In this document: positions 18 through 23,476 of the stretch, piece after piece
How positions within the stretch are numbered: the stretch's first letter is position 1
How the letters are laid out: every line of letters starts with the position of its first letter
Origin: a virus
Lineage: Duplodnaviria; Heunggongvirae; Uroviricota; Caudoviricetes
IMG/VR virus record: IMGVR_UViG_2565956613_000007
Strand: one strand, 5' to 3'
DNA: 23,585 nt
Made by a program: the position numbers and the translations under genes
Notes under the pieces: generated by a model
What the model was told of the DNA's origin: nothing
Seen by the model: only the letters and a program-made list of their open reading frames with translations
Database searches by the model: none

Positions 18-43
18 TTCTCTTAAACCAAGGTTTAGGATTG
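18..43. other. cix-type crossover site for the Cin invertase (26 bp, imperfect dyad TTCTCTTAAACC-AA-GGTTTAGGATTG)
   Basis: Seen in sequence: the core AAACCAAGGTTT and the flanking half-sites match the hix/gix/cix family of invertase crossover sites as I remember them. It overlaps the last three codons and stop of the invertase gene. Bases 1..17 would then lie inside the invertible segment. Confidence 0.6.
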
Positions 44-595
44 AAATGATGACGCCGGAAACTTCTTATAAAGCGTGGAAACAGCCACATCATAGATGAT
101 TGCAACCTGCTTACGGGGGATGCCCTTCTCGAGCAATCGCCGCATTTGCTGCCATGTTTCTTCTTGGTATTTAGGCCGACGTCCACCTATACGACCTTCT
201 GCGCGAGCTGCATCAAGTCCAGCGCGTGTACGTTCAACGATAAGCTCACGTTCCATTTCTGCCAGCGCCCCCATTACGTGAAAGAAAAAGCGCCCCATTG
301 GTGTACTGGTGTCGATGGAGTCAGTGAGACTCCGGAAGTTAATGCCTCTGTCACGCAGCTCTTCCACCAGCACAACTAAGTGACGCATGCTGCGCCCAAG
401 ACGATCTAACTTCCATACGACTAGGGTGTCACCTCTGGAAAGCATACGGAGAACCTTTTTTAACCCAGGGCGTTCAGCCTTTTTGCCGCTCGCCTTGTCC
501 TCAAAAATTAGCTCACATCCTGCGCTTTCAAGAGCGTTTCGTTGTAAAGCAGTGTTTTGTTCATTTGTTGATACGCGTACATAGCCTATTAGCAT
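35..595 (-). CDS. cin: Serine-recombinase DNA invertase, Hin/Gin/Cin/Pin family (186 aa)
   Basis: ATG at 595. N-terminus MLIGYVRVSTNEQN carries the catalytic serine in the VRVST motif; the C-terminus has the helix-turn-helix GIPRKQVAIIYDVAVSTLYKK. Near-colinear with Gin of Mu from memory. The symbol cin is inferred from the P1-like context and the adjacent cix-like site. Confidence 0.88.
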   Translation of the reverse strand: MLIGYVRVSTNEQNTALQRNALESAGCELIFEDKASGKKAERPGLKKVLRMLSRGDTLVVWKLDRLGRSMRHLVVLVEELRDRGINFRSLTDSIDTSTPMGRFFFHVMGALAEMERELIVERTRAGLDAARAEGRIGGRRPKYQEETWQQMRRLLEKGIPRKQVAIIYDVAVSTLYKKFPASSFQS

Positions 596-2431: not shown

Positions 2432-4351
2432 ATGGAACAGTTCAATATCAATAAAGGGGTGACGATCAAGCCTGGGCTTGACGTGCTTCCCCCGCCAGTG
2501 ACTGATGATGAATATCGCGCATTAATGGCCGGTGAGGACCGCTATCTGATGACGGAATCCAACACCCTGGAGGAAATCGAGGCTACGTTCTTCTATGACA
2601 CGCCGATCCACTGGTGTGCTACGGATTTACTGGAGGCGATTAGTTCTACTCGTTTGCAGTTACACCGGACCATGCAGGCATTTGTCCGGGCATTGAACCA
2701 GAAGCTGAATGGTACCGGAATCTCTGCGGGGAGTGATAAAACGGGGGATGTGGCCCAGAGCGGCGCGCGCGCGATCGGCGGCGCTGAAATTGGCCGGGCA
2801 CGTAACGTTAACGGGCTGCCGGTCCTGCCAGCCATTATTCCGCTCAGTGATGGTCAGACTATCAGCATTCTGTTTCATAGCCCGACAGCGGAAAACCGGA
2901 TCACCAATAGCGATACGCTGGTTGCTTTCCAGTTCTTACTGAATAAAAAAGACGTTACTCACACCGTTGCTCCGATGAGTGGACGTGATATGACGCTGGC
3001 GCAGGTCACCATGAAACTTGCCAACCTTGCAGAGAAAAACTCGGCAAAATTCCAGCGTGCGCAGAAGAAGAAAAAAGCCCTTGTTGATGAAATAACCCAA
3101 CTACAGGCTGACAGTGACCAGAAAGAGGATGCCATGAGCGACCTCGCGGATCAGGTGGCAGCGGTAGAAGGGCAGAAGGCAGATCTGGAGCAGAAAATTA
3201 ACGCTGTTGCATCGGAAGCGGATTCTCTTTATGAAGAGAATGAGCGTTTGCAGACGGAGATTGATCAGCTCAATCGCACTGGTGGGCGCGATACCATTGC
3301 TCCAGCGGGGATGACTGGTGGGCACTCTCGCGCGCTGACGGATCGCCTTGCCAGTATCAAAAATCGTATGCATATGAACGGGGAAGTGACGCTCAGTAAT
3401 GGAGCATCAATGAAGCAATTCATTGAGGACGGCGAAGGGTATATCCAGTTAACCGATTCGGATGGCAGCGTGTACATGATCAAGGCTAAATCCATACAGG
3501 GTGTGGACATGGCAGATGCGATCGGCAAGCTGTTTAAAGCCTATAAAGCGGGTAATGTATCGGAATATCTGGTCCAACCAGAAGAACATAAACCGGAAAA
3601 CGTCGAACCTGAACCAGCGGAGGATACCGGTAGCTCTTCGCCTGAACCAGAAGTCTCTGTAGGTGCATATCGATATGCCTTGCAAATGCGTCCGGCGGCC
3701 CCTGGCGCAATACCTGAAGGTAACAAAGCAATTCTGCCGCGCCCTGATGAAGGTGACCCGTATTATGAATATGCACGCTACGGCATTGCTACTTACGATA
3801 CCCCGCTTTCTGATCAGCAAATGAGTGAGTACGACCTGAAGTTATTGCCTCGCGAGGATTCTTTCGACTTCCTGGCGAAGACACTTACTAATGGTCCGTT
3901 TGGCAAATATGCACAAAAAGCTCTGGATCTGGCCACCAGCTCACCAGACGAGTTCCGCGTAATGCTGAAAACTCAGTTTCAAAAAACTTTCCCCAATATT
4001 GCGTTTCCGGGGGGCGCAGGCACCGAGAAAATGGTGCAGAGCATGATCAATGCATTGCAGGCCGAAGTCGGTGAGATTACTCAGCCAGAACCTGCCCCGG
4101 CACAGCCTGATGAAACGGTTAGCGAAGCAGATGCAGAGGCTAATAAAGCCATTGAATATCTCAATAACGTGATGGATATGCAAAGCACTGACATGGCGGA
4201 GATCCGTAACGCCCGGGGTAATGTCCGGGAAGCGATTGCAGCCCTTCAGGCTGCCGGGCGTTTTGAGGAAAACGAAGAGCTGGTTAATGGCGCTGCTCGC
4301 CACCTGGCTGATCTGCTGGTAGCAATCCAGAAAGCGGGGGTAGCGGCATGA
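2432..4351 (+). CDS. darA: DarA-like virion antirestriction/head morphogenesis protein (639 aa)
   Basis: AGGA 8 nt upstream of the ATG. Size and position (hdf-darA-ddrA-ddrB order) match the P1 dar operon as I recall it. Contains coiled-coil-like segments (QLQADSDQKEDAMSDLADQVAAVEGQKADLEQKINAV). Confidence 0.68.
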   Translation: MEQFNINKGVTIKPGLDVLPPPVTDDEYRALMAGEDRYLMTESNTLEEIEATFFYDTPIHWCATDLLEAISSTRLQLHRTMQAFVRALNQKLNGTGISAGSDKTGDVAQSGARAIGGAEIGRARNVNGLPVLPAIIPLSDGQTISILFHSPTAENRITNSDTLVAFQFLLNKKDVTHTVAPMSGRDMTLAQVTMKLANLAEKNSAKFQRAQKKKKALVDEITQLQADSDQKEDAMSDLADQVAAVEGQKADLEQKINAVASEADSLYEENERLQTEIDQLNRTGGRDTIAPAGMTGGHSRALTDRLASIKNRMHMNGEVTLSNGASMKQFIEDGEGYIQLTDSDGSVYMIKAKSIQGVDMADAIGKLFKAYKAGNVSEYLVQPEEHKPENVEPEPAEDTGSSSPEPEVSVGAYRYALQMRPAAPGAIPEGNKAILPRPDEGDPYYEYARYGIATYDTPLSDQQMSEYDLKLLPREDSFDFLAKTLTNGPFGKYAQKALDLATSSPDEFRVMLKTQFQKTFPNIAFPGGAGTEKMVQSMINALQAEVGEITQPEPAPAQPDETVSEADAEANKAIEYLNNVMDMQSTDMAEIRNARGNVREAIAALQAAGRFEENEELVNGAARHLADLLVAIQKAGVAA

Positions 4352-4713
4352 CACTATCAGCTATTGAGTTAATGGATCTCAGCGATAAGTTGGATGCTCT
4401 GATGTCCAAAGCGGCTACCGCGAGTGGCATGGAGTTGCTGGATATCAGCGATGAAATTGACCAGATCATGCAACAGATGGGGTACGGTGTGTCCGGCGGC
4501 AGTAGTGGCGAGGAAAAACAACCTGCGGTACATGATGGTGTGCCAAAACTGGTTGCTGATTTCCTGGCTGATAAATTCGTCGATCAGAGCACCGATGCAT
4601 TTATCGGTACCTTGCAGGATTTGAGTCAATATGTTGGCACATACATCGACCTGGACCAGGTTAAACAGCACACGGCGGCATGGATAGCCGCCAACATTAA
4701 AGAGGCAGCATAA
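4348..4713 (+). CDS. ddrA: DdrA-like small acidic protein (121 aa)
   Basis: ATG overlaps the darA stop (ATGA), so it is translationally coupled. Acidic protein in the position of P1 ddrA. Confidence 0.58.
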   Translation: MTLSAIELMDLSDKLDALMSKAATASGMELLDISDEIDQIMQQMGYGVSGGSSGEEKQPAVHDGVPKLVADFLADKFVDQSTDAFIGTLQDLSQYVGTYIDLDQVKQHTAAWIAANIKEAA

Positions 4714-4725
4714 GGCGTAACAGGG

Positions 4726-7713
4726 ATGAGCTTAAGCGATCAGGTGGTAATGGCCACCAGCATAGAAACGCTGATCGAGCTGCTAAAGAACCTGCCCGAT
4801 TATGGGCGGGTTTCGTATGTGGTGACAGCGAAGGGAGACGAGGTAAAAACAGCGTTTGATATCGTCGATGCCTCAGTTCTTTTGGTATCCAATACTCTGG
4901 ATGGGAAAATTAATCCAGACTATCCCCAGGAACTTCAGCCGCGCGACCGGACCCGCGCATCCAGCCTTCTTCAGGTCAACCAGATATCCAAGGATTTGCG
5001 TCCTGCCCAGCTTACCGATTCCGGTTTATCCAGCCATGGCGCGCCAATAATTGGTGAGGACAATGCCGTTGAGTCAGGTAATGGGCGGACCATGGGGATC
5101 ATTAAAGCCTATCAGGACGGTAATGCGGATCGGTATCGGGAGTACCTGATTGAACATGCGACCGAATTCGGCATACGGCCTGAAAAGGTTGAATCAATGA
5201 CGGCTCCGGTACTGGTGCGCCGCCGGTTAACGAAGGTTGACCGTGTTCAGTTTGCCAAGGACTCAAATATTTCTGATCTCCAGGAAATGGCAGCCAGTGA
5301 AAAGGCTTTTGTTGATGCCGACAGCATAACACCGGCGATGATGGCGCTTTTTAACCCGTCAGAAAGCGGAGATCTGCTTAGCCGCAGTAATGACGCGTTT
5401 ATTCGCGGATTTATGACGCAAGTTGGTGCCACACAGGCGGCTGGCCTTGTAACTGAAGATGGGCGACCAACACGGCAACTTGTAGACCGTATACAAAACG
5501 CGATCTTTGCCAAGGCATATAAGGATGCGCGCCTGGTAAGGATGGTTGCAGAAGAACCTGATCCGGATATGCGTAATGTTCTGACGGCGCTTAATGCGGC
5601 AGCCAATGATTTTGTCCAGATGCAGGCTTTATCAGGAGAAGCGCACAAGCAGGCTGTGACAACTATTGTTGATGGCATTGAGACAGCGGATAGCCTCGAT
5701 AAAAAGGCGCTGGCGGCATTGAAAGATGCGGTAGACCTGGTAAGGCAATCGAAGGAGTCAGGCCAGCATATTACCGATGTTATTGCTCAGGGGGATATGT
5801 TCAGCGAAACGGCCCCGGAAGTGAAAGCACTCGCGTTGTTCATCGTCGCGAATAACCGTAGTGCGAAGCGTATGGCCACCGCCTTTAAGTTGATGGCGCA
5901 ACGTATCAATGATGAGTTACAGCACCAGGGCCAGGCGCTCGGGGATATGTTTGGCGGCGGCGATGTGTCGTTACAGGATATCCTTCGCCAAGTATCTCAG
6001 GAACTGGAAAACGAAGGTATGCAAGGGATATCTGGCGGTCTTTTCGAGTCAGCTTCTGGCGGTAGTTACAACGGTGTTGCTCCATATACCAGCTTGCTAT
6101 TACATCGGGCATCCGGCATCAAAGACATTATTCATCTGATCAGGCTGCTTTCCCGTACAGATCCCCAGGATGAACAGCTTGTTCAAGTGCTTGCGCATTT
6201 TGTTCGAATGCCTGTTGCCGACGTGAAAAAATGGTGCCGATTATTCGGTATCAGCAATTCGTTACTTCGCGGCTTGTTAAATCACGCATCCTCCCTTGGG
6301 CGCGATGGCTTTGACGAGATAGCGCAGGCGATAAAAAACGGAGATATGCCACCAGCTATTGACTGGTTTTCCATTCGCCCAACCAGGGTGAAAGCATTCC
6401 TTAGCGCGGCGCAATCAGTATCACCATTGGCAGAAATGGTTCAGAGGTTATCGCTCATATTCACAGACCATACCGCGTTGGGAGATCTGACTCTGGACGA
6501 GATGAAGGAAGCCTCCATTCAGTGGGCCGATCAACAAAATGAGGTTAACTCAGACTTCTTGCCAGCATTCAGGAAGGCCGTTAGTAAAGCTGATGATGCC
6601 CGTGGAATTCTGAAGGCATTTAAGGCATTGCAAAGTCAGGTTAATAAACATGTCGGTGATATCGATGGGGTAACGGCGGAAGGCAGGGATATCCTTAAAG
6701 AGCACGGCATAACGCCAGAGTTTATTGATGAGATCAGGACTGATATGCAGCGTGAGGTCGTATCGTCACTGCAAATCGTAGCCAGAGCGTTGGCGGATGC
6801 TAATCCGAAGAGTGCGGCCATTGTTAACCGTGTTATTGGTGATATTGAAGCATCGGAGGGCATGGGGGCGCTGAAACTCTTCCTTTCGCGAGCGTTTAAT
6901 CCTAACGGCAATATTCTCCCCGGCATTATTGGTGAGGCTAAAAAGTATGTCAGCGAAGAAGAACTTGAGCAGCTTGACCAACTACTTAAGCGATTCTCAT
7001 ATAACCCGCAGACACGCTGGCAAATGAATCAGCGAAGTATGGGTTCGGTCCACGAGAAAGTGTTATCTGCCATGAACAGTGCGATCGCAAACTCATCCGT
7101 ATCTGAAGAAAAAGCTCTTGAGTGGGCCGACTCTTTTATCACGGAAGAAGTGGAAGAAGCCCGCGCTGGACAGAATGGTGGGATAGACCTGCGCAAGGAA
7201 CTTGCTGATATTTATCGCCTGACCGGCGGTAAAATTTCGACCTTATCAAAGGTGGTTCACCACCAGGGAAGGGCATATGCAAATCTTAATGGTGTTGTTG
7301 CTGTCAATTTGAACGATGAAAATGCAAGTGCACTGTGGCACGAGCTGGGTCATCATCTTGAGTACAGTAACCCTGGTTTGTTAGAGAAAGCCCGGTCATT
7401 CCTGAAGGCCAATGTTGAAGGGGATAAGCCATCTTTCGTTAATATCGGTGGGCGTGGCAAGCCTGAATGGTGCTTCAGATCTCGATTGAGTAATATTTAT
7501 ATGGCGAAGGTATACCCGCCAGCCTCAGTAAGTAACACCGGGAAAATTCGGCAGAAATCACCGACTATTTCCAAAACGTCAGCAACGGAAGTATTCTCTA
7601 TGGCTCTTCAGTTGTATCATGACAAAGAGGCCGCTGCCGCATCACTGATGAATGGTGACGGATTGCTGGAACTGTTATTAGGTGTGGCAAAGGAGCTAAA
7701 TAATGCAGATTAA
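4726..7713 (+). CDS. ddrB: DdrB-like large protein (995 aa)
   Basis: Long uninterrupted ORF directly downstream of ddrA on the same strand. Size and position match P1 ddrB as I recall it; no enzymatic motif recognised. Confidence 0.62.
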   Translation: MSLSDQVVMATSIETLIELLKNLPDYGRVSYVVTAKGDEVKTAFDIVDASVLLVSNTLDGKINPDYPQELQPRDRTRASSLLQVNQISKDLRPAQLTDSGLSSHGAPIIGEDNAVESGNGRTMGIIKAYQDGNADRYREYLIEHATEFGIRPEKVESMTAPVLVRRRLTKVDRVQFAKDSNISDLQEMAASEKAFVDADSITPAMMALFNPSESGDLLSRSNDAFIRGFMTQVGATQAAGLVTEDGRPTRQLVDRIQNAIFAKAYKDARLVRMVAEEPDPDMRNVLTALNAAANDFVQMQALSGEAHKQAVTTIVDGIETADSLDKKALAALKDAVDLVRQSKESGQHITDVIAQGDMFSETAPEVKALALFIVANNRSAKRMATAFKLMAQRINDELQHQGQALGDMFGGGDVSLQDILRQVSQELENEGMQGISGGLFESASGGSYNGVAPYTSLLLHRASGIKDIIHLIRLLSRTDPQDEQLVQVLAHFVRMPVADVKKWCRLFGISNSLLRGLLNHASSLGRDGFDEIAQAIKNGDMPPAIDWFSIRPTRVKAFLSAAQSVSPLAEMVQRLSLIFTDHTALGDLTLDEMKEASIQWADQQNEVNSDFLPAFRKAVSKADDARGILKAFKALQSQVNKHVGDIDGVTAEGRDILKEHGITPEFIDEIRTDMQREVVSSLQIVARALADANPKSAAIVNRVIGDIEASEGMGALKLFLSRAFNPNGNILPGIIGEAKKYVSEEELEQLDQLLKRFSYNPQTRWQMNQRSMGSVHEKVLSAMNSAIANSSVSEEKALEWADSFITEEVEEARAGQNGGIDLRKELADIYRLTGGKISTLSKVVHHQGRAYANLNGVVAVNLNDENASALWHELGHHLEYSNPGLLEKARSFLKANVEGDKPSFVNIGGRGKPEWCFRSRLSNIYMAKVYPPASVSNTGKIRQKSPTISKTSATEVFSMALQLYHDKEAAAASLMNGDGLLELLLGVAKELNNAD

Positions 7714-8014
7714 AATCGCAGCGCCATTAGGCGGAGATGCCATTATCGAATTTGATGATAATGAAGAAGTTTCCGGGCGTTTAAGCATTATCTCCGGTGA
7801 CATTACCGAGGACATGATCGCTGAAGCCATAGCTGGGGCAAATCCCAATAGCTATATGGGATTCGTTAACACCCTTGATGCTCCCGCAAGTGATGTTCTC
7901 CGAACGCTGCATCTTTACGCTGGCTGGTTTGTTGATTGGCCAGCAGTAGATGGTGGCGATGAGGACGACGACGACGATGATTTTGGTGATCATGTAGACC
8001 AGATCGTATATTGA
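7703..8014 (+). CDS. Small acidic protein with a poly-Asp C-terminal tract (103 aa)
   Basis: ATG overlaps the end of ddrB with AAGGAG 8 nt upstream. The C-terminus DGGDEDDDDDDFGDHVDQIVY is strongly acidic. It is the last gene of the dar operon before a terminator. Confidence 0.55.
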   Translation: MQIKIAAPLGGDAIIEFDDNEEVSGRLSIISGDITEDMIAEAIAGANPNSYMGFVNTLDAPASDVLRTLHLYAGWFVDWPAVDGGDEDDDDDDFGDHVDQIVY

Positions 8015-8034
8015 AGAAATCCCGCCGATTGGCG
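8007..8034. terminator. Rho-independent terminator between convergent operons
   Basis: Seen in sequence: AAATCCCGCC-gatt-GGCGGGATTT stem-loop followed by a T run on the plus strand. It sits between the end of the dar operon (plus) and the end of the ssb operon (minus). Confidence 0.7.
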
Positions 8035-8042
8035 GGATTTTT

Positions 8043-8831
8043 TTAATCGCTTTCCACTTCTTCCGTGGTGTTTTCTTGCAGTTCTGTTAATGCAGCACGA
8101 CATAGGTTCCGGGCATTGGCTATAGCCACACTTTTGACTTCATCCGTCATCGTGCAGGTAATGTACTGATCGAGTTCTTCAGCGCGGATGATGCTTTTGC
8201 CAATCAGAAACTGTATTTGCCAGAGCAGATCGGCATCCATAATCAGAATTTCTGCCGGGCCTTCAGGGCCAGCCGGGAAGGAAACATAAGACTGTTTGCC
8301 CAGGCCGATAACTCGACAACTTGCTTCAAGAATTGCGCGCTTGAGGTCTGACTTTGTAACGGAAACAGGTTGGTTTTCACCAGTGATTATGCCGTTGACA
8401 TGGAAATGGAAGGGCATGTAGCTTGAAATACGCTCTACTTTCCACACGCCAGCAAGCGATCCTTCATGCAGCACAATGGGGGTAACCGCGAGTTTCATCT
8501 CACCATATAACTGCTGGCAGATAGCTGGATTGCTGAATACATCCAAAGGTTCACACTCAAACAGCGGCGCAATCTGCATGAGGTCCATCATGGTCATACC
8601 AGGGGTACGAGCAGTAATGAATCTGCGCATGCCAGTATCCATTGTGCGCCAGATAGCTACACCATGCTTTTTGCTCACTTCTTCAGTAAAGCCAAGGTGG
8701 CACATGATGGTTTTTTCGATAGCCAGATCAGAGATCGAAACCTTTTCGCCAGGCACACCATCATTATTGATGGTCACTTCGACACTCTGACCATTACGCA
8801 GGCGGTATTGAATTGCTTTAGTATTTTCCAC
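8043..8831 (-). CDS. Hypothetical protein (262 aa), last gene of the ssb operon
   Basis: GTG start 6 nt after the stop of the upstream gene, preceded by GGAG. No motif recognised. Confidence 0.55.
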   Translation of the reverse strand: MENTKAIQYRLRNGQSVEVTINNDGVPGEKVSISDLAIEKTIMCHLGFTEEVSKKHGVAIWRTMDTGMRRFITARTPGMTMMDLMQIAPLFECEPLDVFSNPAICQQLYGEMKLAVTPIVLHEGSLAGVWKVERISSYMPFHFHVNGIITGENQPVSVTKSDLKRAILEASCRVIGLGKQSYVSFPAGPEGPAEILIMDADLLWQIQFLIGKSIIRAEELDQYITCTMTDEVKSVAIANARNLCRAALTELQENTTEEVESD

Positions 8832-8837
8832 GTTAAA

Positions 8838-9515
8838 TCACTCCACTACAAACCAGTCACATGCCAGTAAGTCGCCTACAGAAGGAACCCACGGAACAAC
8901 TACACCTTGTGCATTTTTTAAGGCGAAATAAGCACCATACGGAACGAGGTCGCCGGGGAAATATCCCTTAATGGCTTCCATTCGTGCCGGGTACTGTCCT
9001 TCAGGAACCAGCCAGCAGAATTGGTTTTCGCCGTTCCACCCGCGTCGAGCAACTTTCTTGCCATCCTTCAGCCACATCAGCGCGTCAGAAAAGTCGGCTG
9101 CTTCAAGGTCGATTTCTTCTTGTAGAGTAGCGATACCGCCAGCAGAAATAGTTACGTCCCTGGCTGTAATGAATGTCACCCCATTGTGACCTTCAATGCT
9201 GAGCGATACCCCATTTTCGAAGAAGTCGTTAGTCCGACTAAAGCCTTCTTCAAATGTTTTTTCTGGTGAATAGGACAGAGATCCGTCCTCATAAGCGACC
9301 AGATATCCGCCAATTTCTGGTCGGTGTTTTTGCAAAAACATTTTATCAACATGGACTTTTACCCCTTCTGGCTCAACGACTTCGATGTTGCAAAGAAGGA
9401 CCACATCCATTAGGGCGATAATTTCGATATCTTTGATTTTTGAGGCGCGAACTGTTTTATGGCTTTTGTATTTTGGAAGTGCCGTCAAAAGCTCTTTCGT
9501 TGTCATGTTATTCAT
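8838..9515 (-). CDS. Two-domain protein (225 aa) with a C-terminal DUF2829/Tad2-like domain
   Basis: Preferred start ATG at 9515 with the strong SD GAGGAAAG; the track extends it to 9683 without good initiation signals. C-terminal segment FSDALMWLKDGKKVARRGWNGENQFCWLVPEG ... GDLLACDWFVVE fits the pattern I associate with DUF2829 (the family that includes the Thoeris anti-defence protein Tad2). This is a from-memory assignment. Confidence 0.55.
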   Translation of the reverse strand: MNNMTTKELLTALPKYKSHKTVRASKIKDIEIIALMDVVLLCNIEVVEPEGVKVHVDKMFLQKHRPEIGGYLVAYEDGSLSYSPEKTFEEGFSRTNDFFENGVSLSIEGHNGVTFITARDVTISAGGIATLQEEIDLEAADFSDALMWLKDGKKVARRGWNGENQFCWLVPEGQYPARMEAIKGYFPGDLVPYGAYFALKNAQGVVVPWVPSVGDLLACDWFVVE

Positions 9516-9529
9516 AGTCTTTCCTCTGC

Positions 9530-9712
9530 TTAAAACCTGATGTCTTGCGCCTTCAGGTGGGTCAGGAATGTTTTCCCACCAGCGAAAGCAATATCTCGGG
9601 GTGTTCTTTTCGTGAAAAGCGCGTGCCATTGCCAACTTTGGCGTTTGTTTGCGAGTTCGTGCTTTTGTCGGCGTCTGGACCACCGCTTTTCTTTCAGTCG
9701 TTTTTTACACAT
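9530..9712 (-). CDS. Possible small basic protein (60 aa)
   Basis: The ATG directly abuts the ssb stop (TGAATG) and the ORF ends 14 nt before the next gene start, so it fills the inter-gene gap exactly. Very Arg/Lys-rich. No SD of its own, so low confidence. Confidence 0.3.
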   Translation of the reverse strand: MCKKRLKEKRWSRRRQKHELANKRQSWQWHALFTKRTPRDIAFAGGKTFLTHLKAQDIRF

Positions 9713-10201
9713 TCAAAACGGAATATCGTCGTCAAAGTCCATTGGAGGTTCGTTATTGGCGTTGCTCTGAGGTTTACCGCCACCACTGTATTGCTGGTGG
9801 TTTTGAGGTTGGTTTGATTGCCCCCAGCCATTTGAGGACTGTGAATCGTCACGGCGAGCGCCGATCATTTGCATGGTGCCGCCCTGGCTGACGATAATTT
9901 CCGTCGTGTAACGTTCTACACCGGCGTCATCTGTCCACTTACGGGTTTTAAGTTTCCCTTCGATGTAGACCTGAGAACCTTTTCGTAAATATTCACTCGC
10001 AATTTCAGCAAGTTTTCCGAACAAAACTACTTTATGCCATTCTGTTTGCTCTTTCTGTTGGCCCGTTTGCTTGTCGCGCCATGATTCATTCGTTGCGATG
10101 CTGAGTCTTCCGACCGCGCCGCCATTTGGTATATACCTGATCTCCGGGTCTTGCCCCAGGGTACCAATCAGGATGACTTTGTTTACACCGCGTTGTGCCA
10201 C
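9713..10201 (-). CDS. ssb: Single-stranded DNA-binding protein (162 aa)
   Basis: Classic SSB OB-fold sequence ([18 protein letters not shown] ... [14 protein letters not shown]), a Gly/Gln-rich linker and the acidic C-terminal tail MDFDDDIPF. Confidence 0.92.
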
Positions 10202-10220
10202 TTATCTTACCTAATAAAAT

Positions 10221-10237
10221 AAATTAATTAGAGCAAT
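10221..10237 (-). promoter_or_regulatory. C1 repressor operator-like 17-mer (16 of 17 match to the consensus ATTGCTCTAATAAATTT as I recall it)
   Basis: Seen in sequence: the minus strand reads ATTGCTCTAATTAATTT, located 20 to 36 bp upstream of the ssb start in the ssb/lyz divergent region. Confidence 0.5.
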
Positions 10238-10260
10238 AATGTATATCTTTGAAACGTGGC

Positions 10261-10282
10261 TAACAAGTGATTTGCATTATCC
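10261..10282 (+). promoter_or_regulatory. Putative late-promoter element TAACAAGTGA plus downstream AT-rich hexamer
   Basis: Seen in sequence: TAACAAGTGA at 10261..10270 followed by tttgcaTTATCC, about 90 bp upstream of lyz. The same 10-mer recurs upstream of prt; the ACAAGTGA core recurs upstream of the gene at 22558..23199. Confidence 0.4.
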
Positions 10283-10370
10283 TGTGCCTTCTAAAGGGAT
10301 CGAGTCAGTCGGTATTGGCTGTGAATGAGTGTTTGTCCTGGAGCGTAAAAAATTCGCTTATGAGGTCTTT

Positions 10371-10928
10371 ATGAAGGGAAAAACAGCCGCAGGAGGCGGT
10401 GCAATTTGCGCTATCGCGGTGATGATTACCATCGTGATGGGTAATGGCAATGTGCGAACCAACCAGGCGGGGCTTGAGCTGATTGGTAACGCTGAAGGTT
10501 GCCGACGTGATCCATACATGTGCCCGGCGGGGGTATGGACTGACGGGATTGGTAATACACACGGGGTAACGCCGGGTGTGCGAAAAACCGACCAGCAAAT
10601 CGCCGCTGATTGGGAAAAGAATATCCTGATCGCTGAACGCTGTATTAATCAGCACTTCCGGGGCAAAGACATGCCCGATAATGCCTTCAGTGCAATGACA
10701 AGCGCGGCATTCAATATGGGATGCAATAGCTTACGAACCTACTACAGCAAAGCGCGAGGCATGCGAGTAGAAACGTCCATCCACAAGTGGGCGCAGAAAG
10801 GGGAATGGGTGAATATGTGTAACCATCTCCCTGATTTCGTGAACAGTAACGGCGTGCCCCTGCGAGGTTTAAAGATTCGCCGTGAAAAAGAACGCCAGCT
10901 TTGCCTGACAGGACTGGTCAATGAATAA
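10371..10928 (+). CDS. lyz: SAR endolysin, T4-lysozyme-like fold (185 aa)
   Basis: Preferred start ATG 10371 (GAGG upstream). N-terminal signal-anchor-release segment AAGGGAICAIAVMITIVMG. With this start, Cys13, Glu42, Cys44, Cys51 and Thr57 fall at the positions I recall for P1 Lyz. Confidence 0.88.
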   Translation: MKGKTAAGGGAICAIAVMITIVMGNGNVRTNQAGLELIGNAEGCRRDPYMCPAGVWTDGIGNTHGVTPGVRKTDQQIAADWEKNILIAERCINQHFRGKDMPDNAFSAMTSAAFNMGCNSLRTYYSKARGMRVETSIHKWAQKGEWVNMCNHLPDFVNSNGVPLRGLKIRREKERQLCLTGLVNE

Positions 10929-14016: not shown

Positions 14017-17000
14017 ATGAACAAGCTATCTATGGGGGTGTTTCGCTGTTCAAGTGTCAGCGAAATATTGAAATACATTAGGGCAATAACATCTCACCGA
14101 GCGCCGATTAGATACGGCGTGGAAAAGGTGGAAGGCAAAAGCTATGACCGACTACGCCGGGAGGCGAATCAGAAGGCGATTGATTTGCTTAATTCGCTGG
14201 TGGACGGCGCGACACTGACAGATGAACAGCGCCAGATCCTGGCTGGGTACACCGGTGAAGGCGGCATTGGCGGGTCCGTCTCCGAATATTACACACCAAA
14301 GCCGATCGCTGAAGGTGTCTGGGAGATCATGAAGCTCTACGGCGCGGACGTAGGTAACACTCTGGAACCATCGGCGGGCACCGGCGTTTTTAATGAGACA
14401 AAACCGGTTGGTACGGTGATGACTGCGACTGAGATCAGCAGTGTTTCCGGTCGTATAAACCAGCTGTTACACCCGGAAGACAGCGTACAGATTTCCCCGT
14501 TCGAACAGCTGGCTGTAAGCACGCCTAACGATTCATTCGACCATGTTGTGGGTAACGTTCCGTTCGGTGGTCGTGATAACACACGCAACATCGATAAGCC
14601 TTACGCAGAAGAAACGGACATGGGTTCTTACTTCATGCTCCGCATGCTGGACAAGATAAAGCCAGGCGGATTCATGTGCGTGATTGTGCCGCCGTCCATT
14701 GTTTCAGGTTCAAACATGAAGCGGTTACGCCTGCGCCTATCACGGAAAGCTGAATTTCTTGGTGCTCACCGCTTGCCTACCGGTACTTTTGACGCAAACG
14801 GGACCAGTACAGTCGTTGATGTGGTGCTGATGCGCAAACATCCGGCAGAGATGGCTGAGAAAATCCCCCTGGTGGATGAAAGCACTCTTGAATCGGCAAA
14901 TGTGCTTTGGCCAACGTTTATTTCTGGCAAGTGGTTTGAAAAGGACGGTCGCCGGTTTGTTCATGGCACCCAGGAGAAGGGATTCCAGGGGCGTATTGAG
15001 GTTCGTGCCGACGGGCAGATTGATAACCAGGCTCTTAAAGCGAAGCTGATTCATCGTTTCGAAAGTCGTATCGACTGGTCTTTACTCAATATGGCTGAAC
15101 CGTCACCGACCGCAGACGTTGTTGATGAAGGGGAAATGCGCCTGATTAATGGCGTATGGCAAAAATATGCTGGTGGTCGCTGGATTGAATCTGATGCAGG
15201 GAAGGAGCTGAAGATTGATGTTGCCAGTTATGGCGCGGACAGCTGGGAGGCTCTTCAGCGTAACCTGACTACAACAGAAGGCCGTCTCGGTATGACATTT
15301 ACCCAGATGGCAAATGTCCGCGATAAGTACACCACATCAATCAGCGACGATATGGTGCAGCTGGTGGACTGGATTAACAGCCAGCCTGAAAAATACCGTG
15401 AACGCTTGTATCGCGGGGCGATGATTGGCCGGATGTTAATTGAATATCAGGACATGAAGGCCGCCGGGCATAGTGCTGAACAAATCGAACAGCAGCGCCT
15501 TTCTCTGGTATCCCGTTTGCAGGCAGAGATTGACCGTTTTGGTAACCCCGGTCGCGGTCCGATAGCGAAATTATCGGGGAGCGGTGCGCGCGCCTGGTTT
15601 GCTTTCCGTGGTGCAATTAAGCTGGATGGCACTATTTCTGACGAGCTGACAGGAAAACTGGTTACGCATGATTCCAGCGCCAGTTATGACTCCACCAGCT
15701 ATCAGGACACCCTGCGTTATCTCTACAGTGATCTCACTCGCGATCCAATCCAGCTCGATGATTTCCGCCTTGCGTTTACCGGCGAACTGCCAGCCAGTGA
15801 TGACGAGTTGCTTAATTTATTGGCCAGCACCCCTGGCATTGCGGTTTCACCGTATGGCGGGATTGTTCCGTTCGCCCGCGCCACCAGCGGAGACATTAAC
15901 GAGATAGTGGCACCAAAACAGGAATTCCTTGCCACACTCCCCGACGGTCCAGTAAAGAACAACGTCCTTAATCAGCTGGCAGCGATCGAAGAGAAGCGCA
16001 TCAAGACGCCAGCAGAGAATATCCGCTTTAAGCTCAATAGCCGTTGGTTCGACCGTTCCGTCATTCTGGAATTTTTGCAGGAAAACGGCTATCCGGATCT
16101 TCGCTATGTGCAGTCAGTGCAGCTGGAAGGCGACGAAATGGTTTCTGACACCTATCACGGTGGTGATGGTCTGTTCGTCGGGCACCGATACGGTGTTGTC
16201 CAGCGCAAGGATAAAGAAACAGGCGAGATCCGCTACGAGTGGGACCGTAAATCAGGTGAAAACGCGACCGGGTTCCCGGCACAGCTGGAAAAGTATCTCA
16301 ATGGTGCGCGTATCGGTGGCAAAGATAGCGCGACGGCGAACGGCTACCGCGAGCAGATGGCACTGCTTGAGGACCAGTTCAATAAGTGGATCAAGACGCA
16401 CGATCGCTACGATGAACTGGTTGCCAAATACAACGATGTGTTCAATAGCAATATCCCGTATGAACACTCTGGCGATCCGCTTGGGTTGAAGGGATTAAGC
16501 GGTAAGCGCCAGCCATTTGATTACCAGAATAGCGAAGTGCGCCGACTGTCCGAAGATGGGCGCGGCATCCTGGGCTTCGGCACCGGGCTGGGTAAAACTA
16601 CGACCGCGCTGGCGCTTGAAGCGTTCAACTATGAGAACGGTCGCTCCACCCGTACTGCGTATGTAGTGCCTAAATCAGTGCTGGAAAACTGGTATTACGA
16701 AGCAAAAGAATTCCTGAGTGAAGAGGCATTCAGTAACTACCTGTTCGTCGGTCTTGATGTGCTGATGGATGGCGATCAGATTCGCCAGGTGCCGGTGCTC
16801 GATGAGAACGGTAAACCTGTTCTTGGTACTGATGGCACTCCAGTTATGCGCGATGCCCTAAAACTGGCAGATGAAGCCACTATCACGGCGCGGATGAACG
16901 CGATCCCGCACTCAAATTACCGTGCAGTCGTGTTTACCAAAGAACAATACGCCCGCATTCCGCTACGTGATGACACCGTAGATGAGCATGCACAGGATAT

Positions 17001-21564: not shown

Positions 21565-22515
21565 ATGAATGTTTTTATTGATACAAATCTATATTTAGAA
21601 TTTTATCGAATGGGTAAGGATAAACTAGATGAGCTAGATAAAGTATTTGCCTTACATCAATATGGTCGTTTAAAACTTTGGTTGCCAGAACTTTTAGTGA
21701 ATGAGTTCTGGAGAAATCGTTCTAAAGTTCTCTCTGAAACCATAAAGGAAATTGCAAAAGACTACAAGCCCGCGCTACCACAGATTTTCAGACAGCATGA
21801 AAAACATTCACTATTTAATGATAAGGTTATAGAAGCTAGTCGGCTAAAGAATGAAATTATTACCGATATACAGAACTTATTTAAAGAAGAGTCTTTAGCT
21901 GCCGATGTTGTAATTAAAAGGATTTTTGATGCAGCGTCTAAGATAGAGGCTGATGATGAAACAATAGAAAAGGGGAAACGCCGATTCGATCTTGGCAACC
22001 CTCCGGGTAAAAATAAATCATATGGTGATGCAGTCAATTGGGAGTGTTTGCTAAAAGCGATACCAAACGGAGAGGATATATACATTATAACTGAAGATGG
22101 TGATTATAAAAGTGCCTTTATAAAGGATGATATGAATGAGTATTTGAAGTACGAGTGGAAAAAGAAGAAAGATTCAGAACCACATATCTATGCCCGCTTA
22201 TCAGAGTTTATAGGCGAGCACTTTCCTCAAGCCAGTAACTTAGCGGAAATGGAAGTTAATTTCACTATAGATGAATTACGCCGCTCAGGCAGTTTTGCCA
22301 CAACACATCGAGTTGTAGCAAAGTTATTAAAATTCAATCATTTTACACAAGAGCAAATCCTAAAAATAATCGATATCTATTTTAATAATGATCAGGTTGG
22401 CTTCATTAAAGATGATGATGATGTAAAACTACTCGCCAGAAGACTAATATCACTTGGTGACGAGGATAAAGATCCTGAAGGGATGCTTGAGCCATTCCGT
22501 GTATTTATTGATTAA
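21565..22515 (+). CDS. PIN-like nuclease-domain protein (316 aa) in an AT-rich acquired cassette; candidate defence/abortive-infection effector
   Basis: ATG with AGGA 6 nt upstream. N-terminal beta-strand with Asp (MNVFIDTN), then LPELLVNEF, DLGNPPGKNKSYGDAVNW and IYIITEDGDY, a spacing of acidic residues typical of PIN-like folds. Codon usage and base composition are visibly AT-rich, unlike the flanking genes. Confidence 0.7.
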   Translation: MNVFIDTNLYLEFYRMGKDKLDELDKVFALHQYGRLKLWLPELLVNEFWRNRSKVLSETIKEIAKDYKPALPQIFRQHEKHSLFNDKVIEASRLKNEIITDIQNLFKEESLAADVVIKRIFDAASKIEADDETIEKGKRRFDLGNPPGKNKSYGDAVNWECLLKAIPNGEDIYIITEDGDYKSAFIKDDMNEYLKYEWKKKKDSEPHIYARLSEFIGEHFPQASNLAEMEVNFTIDELRRSGSFATTHRVVAKLLKFNHFTQEQILKIIDIYFNNDQVGFIKDDDDVKLLARRLISLGDEDKDPEGMLEPFRVFID

Positions 22516-22557: not shown

Positions 22558-23199
22558 TTAAAGATAATTATCTCTGCCGGTTAATGAACCTTGAGGCACT
22601 TTCCGTGCGGTCATTTCATGAGTAGCTTGAATTATATTCACAAGGGAGCTTAGTAACGAAGGTTCTTGGCGGGTATCAATTTCTCCAGCCATTGCCCTGA
22701 TGTAGTCGGAGCTTGCAACGTTGTTGTATTCCGTTGCGAAGCAGCATAACAACGTCAGAACGTGCTCTGTCGTTATTTCGCTCCAGTTGATGTTGAAAAA
22801 TTCATCGCCTTTTTTGTCATGTTCGGAATCGAAGATGCTTTGGTGGAGGATGTATTTGCCGGATTCTTTGCGCGGTAACTTGATCGCTTTCTGGCGTTCC
22901 AGCTCCTTGTAAATCTGCATTGCTTCAATCAGTACCGGCCTGCCGTTCATGAAGGGATCGCGCAACCTTACACGCTGGCCAACTCGACCAGTAATAAAGC
23001 TGTTTTCCTCTTCCACCAGCACGATAAAACCCTTTTCCTCTTTTTCTCGCAATTCGCGCAGCAGCTGGAGTTCCATGTCGCGGCGGCGTTCAGGGTAGCT
23101 GGTACGCTCAGCCATTATCAGCTCGTTGTTGATCCATGCAGCAGTCATTGACGCCGGTTTGCCGACGCTCATCGAAACAACGCATATTTTCTTATCCAT
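22558..23199 (-). CDS. Hypothetical protein (213 aa from the preferred start)
   Basis: Preferred start ATG at 23199 with SD AGGGGG; the track start at 23346 lacks signals and would lie upstream of the putative promoter element. Glu/Arg-rich helical segment ELQLLRELREKEEKG. Convergent with the PIN-like gene. Balanced G+C, so probably a phage backbone gene. Confidence 0.55.
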   Translation of the reverse strand: MDKKICVVSMSVGKPASMTAAWINNELIMAERTSYPERRRDMELQLLRELREKEEKGFIVLVEEENSFITGRVGQRVRLRDPFMNGRPVLIEAMQIYKELERQKAIKLPRKESGKYILHQSIFDSEHDKKGDEFFNINWSEITTEHVLTLLCCFATEYNNVASSDYIRAMAGEIDTRQEPSLLSSLVNIIQATHEMTARKVPQGSLTGRDNYL

Positions 23200-23330
23200 A
23201 GCGCCCCCTACAAAAAAGAAAAGCCACCAGCGGCGGCTTAGCAATACAACAGAAGGTAGCGCCCGGTACTCAGACTGTGCCGTCCATGGAATATTTGAAA
23301 AGGGATCCATCCGTACCGGGCGTGTGATGA

Positions 23331-23350
23331 TTCTGACTGAAGTCACTTGT
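23331..23350 (-). promoter_or_regulatory. Putative late-promoter element (ACAAGTGA core) upstream of the 22558..23199 gene
   Basis: Seen in sequence: the minus strand reads TTGACAactgACAAGTGActtcagTCAGAA, about 130 to 150 nt upstream of the ATG at 23199. Confidence 0.35.
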
Positions 23351-23459: not shown

Positions 23460-23476
23460 GTTGCTCTAATAAATTT
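23460..23476 (+). promoter_or_regulatory. C1 repressor operator-like 17-mer (16 of 17 match to ATTGCTCTAATAAATTT)
   Basis: Seen in sequence: gTTGCTCTAATAAATTT in the AT-rich region at the right end of the window, presumably controlling a gene beyond the window edge or the divergent region. Confidence 0.5.

Follow-up and report, generated by a model that had tools for sequence, protein, structure and literature searches.

The open reading frame at positions 8043..8831 on the minus strand of the 23,585-nt stretch of viral DNA analysed here (referred to as the window) is, near certainly, the isaA gene of a P1-like phage-plasmid, and a real gene under purifying selection. From guilt by association, we infer that its product might be a soluble, acidic and non-enzymatic binding protein that serves as a counter-defence or host-takeover factor, a tentative reading to which we give slightly less than an even chance.

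The window as a whole derives from a P1-like phage-plasmid, sharing 98.5% identity with Salmonella phage SJ46 and about 97% with P1. The 3′ 785 nt of P1 isaA show 95.7% nucleotide identity to the 8043..8831 ORF, and P1 IsaA (P1_gp017, YP_006486.1) is 96.6% identical to the encoded 262-aa protein over residues 2–262. Moreover, the phrog_2326 profile matches the protein over residues 1–262 (E 5.6e-151), and the SJ46 annotation already names the orthologous gene isaA. The gene was thus catalogued before (i.e., as P1 isaA, D6 orf113 and PHROG 2326), and its identity is already known. The initial annotation, which called it an unrecognised 262-aa protein, was right that the ORF is real and its function uncharacterised, but not that it is unrecognised. 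Its suggestion that little may be known of the gene in the reference phage agrees with the P1 annotation, where isaA is named “IS1-associated gene A” with unknown function; PHROG 2326 likewise carries the annotation “function unknown”. Between the window and P1, isaA shows 25.5 synonymous and 8.5 non-synonymous differences (dN/dS of 0.088), with 25 of the 34 differences located in third codon positions. Since, in addition, IsaA homologs remain full-length down to 17% identity, the ORF is more than a product of chance.

Searches of the protein against Pfam, NCBIfam, PADLOC and PDB sequences returned no match (E<=1 for Pfam and PADLOC), in line with the initial annotation's remark that it has no recognisable motif. 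Pfam searches with all 28 IsaA relatives yielded only noise (E >= 0.09), and PDB searches by sequence, using either the single protein or the family profile, gave nothing below E 0.4. All family members are acidic (pI 4.4–5.1, net charge –7 to –27), with on average no basic segment. Four residues are invariant (L126, W130, G176 and D221), and polar or aromatic residues are conserved at Y9, E133, Y138, K179, Y182, F185, Y223, E231 and R241, yet no catalytic-type motif could be discerned among the conserved residues. Neither did we find a signal peptide, a membrane segment, a helix-turn-helix (HTH), or a nuclease, NTPase or toxin motif.

The quality of the AlphaFold prediction depended on alignment depth, in that 8 sequences gave a poor model (pLDDT 63) and 28 sequences a confident one (pLDDT 88, pTM 0.85). 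The latter predicts an N-terminal β-hairpin, two α-β3-α units, a further α/β unit, a long C-terminal helix and a short acidic tail; no internal sequence repeat was detectable between the two α-β3-α units. A Foldseek search of the model against BFVD retrieved only P1's own fragment. The remote homology and structure prediction advised at the outset delivered PHROG 2326 and a confident model, but no informative fold relatives. Several candidate assignments were rejected along the way. A 521-aa match (P0056), considered as an IsaA domain fusion, proved to be a spurious repeat translation. An RNA-binding protein of the dsRBD type was dismissed because of the lack of a basic face, of a Pfam dsrm match, and of identity above 8–15%. 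A PD-(D/E)xK nuclease, considered after hits to Hjc and the tRNA-splicing endonuclease, was set aside because conserved catalytic D...(D/E)xK residues were not found on the β-sheet. The acidic character and the lack of an HTH speak against an Aca-like regulator, and 0 PADLOC families at E<=1 against a known anti-phage defence protein.

The anatomy of the region well supports isaA as the last gene of a C1-repressed ssb operon, with which it would be co-transcribed. This operon starts with ssb (9713..10201, minus strand; annotated as such in P1, SJ46 and P7), and is preceded by a C1 repressor operator (ATTGCTCTAATTAATTT; 10221..10237, minus strand) that has one mismatch to the consensus, compared to 0.11 matches expected by chance, and that occupies the position equivalent to Op21/Ossb in the P1 annotation. 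Terminator prediction on the minus strand found none between ssb and isaA, and a promoter scan of the 7600–10400 region found no sigma-70 consensus sites, leaving an internal isaA promoter unsupported. The operator and the uninterrupted stretch behind it agree with the earlier view of the gene as the terminal one of an ssb early operon, and such a position would have isaA made early in infection or upon induction.

Downstream, the isaA ORF ends 2–3 nt from a hairpin (8010..8047) whose plus-strand and minus-strand forms fold at –24 and –17.1 kcal/mol (z –5.7 and –3.7), respectively. It outperformed every shuffled sequence on both strands, and U-rich tracts follow the stem on either side. This combination marks the hairpin as a bidirectional intrinsic terminator, as had been noted before, common to isaA and the convergent hxr gene (7703..8014, plus strand, 103 aa; phrog_2292, annotated in both P1 and SJ46), which ends at the same structure.

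The gene immediately upstream of isaA (8838..9515, minus strand; PHROG 872) was rightly described as DUF2829-like, since PF11195 (DUF2829, Tad2-like) matches residues 197–280 of the 281-aa ORF in which it was originally called (E 2.5e-22). It consists of a variable N-terminal domain and a C-terminal Tad2 domain, the former of which (~140 aa) is highly variable among relatives and mostly missing from D6, whose protein has 146 aa. Its 3′ end (...GTGGAGTGA) reads GTG GAG TGA, with the TGA at 8838–8840, and is followed by a TTTAAC spacer (8832–8837) and the GTG start codon of isaA (8831–8829). A GGAG motif (8841–8844) is embedded in the last codons of the Tad2-like gene, 9 nt ahead of the isaA start. 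This minus-strand junction (8832..8844) contains the 6-nt spacing, GTG start and GGAG reported in the initial annotation, and one relative (L139) has an ATG exactly at the position of the GTG. From this arrangement, translation of isaA is probably coupled to that of the Tad2-like gene. IsaA itself does not belong to the Tad2/DUF2829 family, as it has no PF11195 match and its hhalign probability against an alignment of the neighbouring Tad2-like proteins is only 0.3%.

A comparison with the IS1-flanking genes of P1 established isaA as the ortholog of 8043..8831, and placed the main difference on the upstream side of the gene. IS1 indeed adjoins P1 isaA, as had been suggested, but the accompanying idea that it may disrupt the gene in the reference phage did not hold, since IS1 and isaB (together about 1.7 kb) lie beyond the intact isaA stop codon, between isaA and hxr, where the window has the 30-nt terminator alone. 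Upstream, P1 lacks the segment corresponding to 8828–9511 of the window (684 nt, nearly the whole Tad2-like gene) and has 6 nt in its place. Consequently, P1 isaA uses the RBS and ATG block (AAGCAGAGRAAAGACTATG) that opens the Tad2-like gene in the window, and its product starts with MTAQNTK... rather than with V/MENTK....

The absence of the Tad2-like gene from P1 also accounts for the over-long annotation of its IsaA (320 aa). Specifically, a 56-codon upstream extension (9516–9683 in the window, minus strand) is common to this 320-aa P1 isaA and to the 281-aa ORF of the window. The extension is non-coding, since in-frame stops interrupt it in about half of 27 distinct leader variants taken from related elements, the PHROG 872 profile only sets in at residue 57 of the 281-aa ORF, and in D6 the same RBS and ATG come straight after dut. 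As read from the sequence, the correct models are therefore a Tad2-like protein of 225 aa (8838–9515, from the ATG at 9515) instead of the over-called 281 aa, and a P1 IsaA of 264 instead of 320 aa. The extension forms part of the non-coding leader between ssb and the two genes (9516..9712, minus strand), whose 3′ end (9516–9535, TTTTAAGCAGAGGAAAGACT) constitutes the conserved 5′ boundary and RBS of the Tad2-like/IsaA pair. RNA structure in this leader was not significant (z –1.66), and an Rfam search of the whole window gave no match. Finally, the ORF that “interrupts isaA” in pTZ20_1P (PMC6906374) is the Tad2-like cassette.

The linkage between both genes extends well beyond the window. In a survey of 66 Tad2-like loci (whose proteins are 58% to 100% identical and 146 to 234 aa long), IsaA was found downstream in 58, with an identical stop-plus-6-nt junction in 56 of them; the other eight are distant Tad2-like genes, mostly outside the P1/D6 lineage. 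This junction (GACTGGTTTGTAGTGGAGTGATTTAACGTGGAAAATACTAAA) is found in both P1-type and D6-type elements, and together with the 5′ boundary (TTTTAAGCAGAGRAAAGACTATG) it is common to the ssb and the cre-dut contexts, so that RBS-(Tad2-like)-IsaA acts as a portable module. P1-type and D6-type elements are near-identical in the C-terminal Tad2 domain and over the initial ~14 isaA codons, pointing to an exchange of cassettes by recombination. One P1-type locus (L116) carries an insertion of ~1.4 kb (4583–5997), probably a mobile element, between a truncated Tad2-like gene and isaA. Moreover, two loci with an IsaA homolog of 23% identity show the reverse gene order, with a stand-alone 71-aa Tad2-like gene located 54 nt downstream of the IsaA homolog (L158, 6831–7046; L159, 6215–6430). 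This small gene scores 24.5 bits (E 4e-5), just below the Tad2-like cut-off of 25, and its alignment covers the R..GWNG..Q and LKNAQG motifs.

Conversely, among 82 IsaA loci the Tad2-like gene accompanies 23 P1-type and all 22 D6-type ones, and is absent from about 36 P1-type ones. According to a published survey, 93% of D6-type phage-plasmids carry Tad2, compared to 56% of P1-type ones (10.1101/2025.09.12.675607). As about 60% of P1-type elements and the majority of distant relatives have IsaA but no Tad2-like gene, IsaA appears to have a function of its own. This bears directly on the idea that IsaA could play no part of its own and serve only as a dedicated helper (a chaperone, co-sponge subunit or Aca-like regulator) of the Tad2-like protein. 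The invariant 6-nt junction and the near-perfect co-occurrence in D6-type elements are what such a helper would predict, but in P1 and most of the distant relatives IsaA is kept under selection without a Tad2-like gene, Tad2 proteins from elsewhere work on their own, the eight distant Tad2-like loci do without IsaA, and an acidic protein lacking an HTH is no DNA-binding regulator. We therefore regard a mere helper role as very improbable.

The IsaA family is small and lineage-specific. Searching 1.84 billion representative proteins exhaustively with the profile gave only 43 hits, and all 28 aligned relatives match PHROG 2326; a genome-contig search with an alignment gave 2 loci. In PLSDB, 477 plasmids carry an IsaA homolog (336 at >=90% identity and 138 at <60%, the latter D6-type); almost all are non-mobilizable, with listed examples of about 80–220 kb. 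P1-type ssb is present on about 500 plasmids, about 336 of which carry isaA. Every context examined was a P1/D6-type phage-plasmid, with IsaA either beside c1 and cre or beside ssb, and the window too belongs to such an element (with C1 repressor, Cre and Dar/Ddr backbone).

D6 has the order c1 | cre - orf117 - orf116 - dut - Tad2-like - isaA (orf113), and D6 together with relatives at 17–25% identity follows the scheme c1(–) | cre(+) - ~110-aa orf117-family gene - [orf116-like] - [dut] - [Tad2-like] - IsaA. Only in P1-type elements does isaA reside behind ssb. The cre operon is the usual site of the family, and this position is the ancestral one. The orf117 family (~110 aa, no Pfam match), positioned directly after cre and present in all distant IsaA relatives, is a second uncharacterised conserved partner of IsaA (D6 orf117 corresponds to L006 1271–1615, with homologs in L005, L007, L008, L157, L158, L160 and L162), and in L158 and L162 the orf117-family gene overlaps the IsaA start by 4 nt.

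These neighbourhoods are the basis of the main rival explanation, in which IsaA assists DNA metabolism or recombination as an accessory factor of phage-plasmid life. It might modulate Cre-lox cyclisation, dimer resolution, SSB function, or nucleotide/uracil handling, similar to the host-mimicking P1 genes ssb, hot, humD, ref and ban. In all distant relatives the gene indeed lies 1–4 genes downstream of cre and next to c1, always with the orf117-family partner and often with dut, and in P1-type elements it follows ssb. Such deep synteny, together with the low dN/dS, would suit a conserved lineage function. On the other hand, the IsaA segments are all acidic or neutral, and thus offer no DNA-binding surface, and neither sequence nor fold resembles replication or recombination proteins. 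Furthermore, isaA is dispensable in P1 and absent from P7, and the cre-side position is itself a cargo region that also houses the Tad2-like gene. Weighing both sides, we consider a role in DNA metabolism unlikely.

Knocking down isaA by CRISPRi caused no drop in P1 plaquing (PMC10695390), and in the literature the isaA-IS1-isaB segment is known as variable region 2 or RD-2 (PMC9603915, PMC6906374). In P7 and JL22, isaA is missing, and a porin gene (nmpC/ompD) occupies the same slot on the opposite strand (L163 of P7, 3652–4767; L164 of JL22, 3655–4767), which marks the interval between ssb and hxr as a general cargo hotspot. isaA is thus an accessory gene that is dispensable in the laboratory. 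Other P1-like elements hold defence genes in the P1 cargo slot (10.1101/2025.09.12.675607).

The window carries further potential cargo where P1 has res-mod. This slot is filled by a gene for a 316-aa PIN-domain protein (21565–22515, plus strand; PIN_12 at 7.6e-18, with a weak PADLOC match to PDC-S34 at 1.4e-11) and by another 262-aa ORF (22558–23346, minus strand), which has no domain matches and is unrelated to IsaA. A second near-consensus C1 operator (23460–23476, plus strand) adjoins the latter ORF, and both genes could be defence cargo. A third, weaker C1-operator-like site with three mismatches is situated near the darB start (14071–14087, minus strand), at a position equivalent to that of the hypothetical Op(pro) in the P7 annotation, and the left edge of the window (35–595, minus strand) encodes a serine resolvase/invertase (Resolvase and HTH_7 domains) consistent with the P1 cin invertase.

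A slot that receives porin and defence genes would also be a natural home for a prophage-encoded defence, superinfection-exclusion or lysogenic-conversion factor that aids the host or plasmid. Moreover, D6-type isaA sits behind cre, which, as in P1, may be expressed in lysogens. In P1-type elements, the C1-repressed promoter would nevertheless keep isaA off in lysogens, and the gene shares an operon with an anti-defence-type gene. Neither does the protein have a PADLOC match, or a signal peptide, membrane segment, or nuclease, NTPase or toxin motif. A role in protecting the lysogen is therefore quite improbable, more so than one in DNA metabolism.

This brings us back to the tentative reading of IsaA as a counter-defence binding protein. 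If so, IsaA would be produced early from the C1-repressed ssb operon, be co-delivered with the Tad2-like signal sponge by the portable two-gene module, and bind stoichiometrically to a host factor, probably a sensor or effector of immunity, so as to neutralise it, most likely through neither catalysis nor nucleic-acid binding. Early expression is what the C1 operator at 10221–10237 predicts, and dispensability, residence in a variable cargo slot and absence from P7 and JL22 would befit such a factor. Furthermore, in two different operons isaA adjoins a gene of a recognised anti-defence family by the same junction (56 of 58 cases), an association that the L158 and L159 loci repeat in another gene order. 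Tad2 proteins are known to sequester the Thoeris signal gcADPR (10.1101/2023.05.01.538930). An acidic protein with a confident model, no catalytic motif and no PADLOC defence match agrees with this reading as well.

Several observations nevertheless weigh against it. IsaA often occurs without the Tad2-like gene, and their linkage could thus reflect a single historical insertion site spread by recombination, rather than a shared function. Its synteny with cre and c1 across 17–25% identity, under strong purifying selection, looks more like a lineage-specific backbone function than like fast-turnover cargo, and its other neighbours (ssb, dut and cre) are DNA-metabolism genes. Finally, a pI near 5 is not unusual among cytoplasmic proteins. 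A text search of the literature found no link between IsaA and anti-defence. More specifically, IsaA might found an anti-defence family with a fold that lacks a close solved counterpart, joined to the Tad2-like sponge as a counter-immunity module; it could, for example, block the sensor or effector of a signalling system (Thoeris or CBASS-like) or of a system triggered by phage SSB. We rate this stronger claim as possible though rather doubtful, and the probability left over from the four readings of IsaA function goes to something else.

P1 serves as a workhorse phage, and phage-plasmids of the P1/D6 type are often met with in pathogenic strains of E. coli, Shigella and Salmonella; taking all four phage-plasmid groups together, 9% of the E. 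coli and Shigella genomes from surveillance contain one. The name isaA has been a placeholder from the annotation of the P1 genome onwards. The present analysis adds the two corrected gene models, delimits the family and its ancestral site in the cre operon, and describes Tad2-like-IsaA as a portable module whose boundaries are conserved. It also adds a confident structure model, although one that has no informative relatives in fold. Being conserved and selected, lineage-specific, and joined to a Tad2-like gene in two operons, isaA is a concrete and cheap target for an anti-defence screen, for which it is a reasonable, if not surprising, lead. Should IsaA turn out to inhibit immunity, the anti-defence repertoire would gain a new fold, and the host range of phage-plasmids would become easier to explain; should it not, isaA would be an ordinary lineage-specific accessory gene.

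Among known systems, P1 IsaA is closest, having the same place (after ssb and convergent with hxr) in the same C1-controlled operon, but P1 differs from the window in lacking the Tad2-like gene, in carrying IS1 and isaB between isaA and hxr, and in an annotation inflated by the 56 non-coding codons. D6 orf113 and the other members of PHROG 2326 are full-length homologs (48% down to 17% identity), and D6 has the same Tad2-like-IsaA junction, although orf113 belongs to the cre operon instead of the ssb operon. With the Tad2/DUF2829 sponges, IsaA shares an operon, adjacency, probable co-translation and an accessory slot, both being small-to-medium soluble early proteins, yet it is unrelated to them in sequence and three times the size of SPO1 Tad2. 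The dsRBD-like α-β3-α domains and the B. cereus phage protein 1r7l (itself uncharacterised and of no known function) reach only twilight-zone scores at 8–15% identity. Finally, the acidic decoy anti-restriction proteins Ocr and ArdA are likewise early, dispensable, acidic and non-enzymatic, and isaA has the Dar/Ddr anti-restriction genes of P1 in its vicinity. This likeness is by analogy only, as no similarity of IsaA to Ocr or ArdA was found in sequence or fold, its pI of about 5 is far less extreme than that of DNA mimics, and, unlike these, its predicted structure does not have an elongated all-helical shape.
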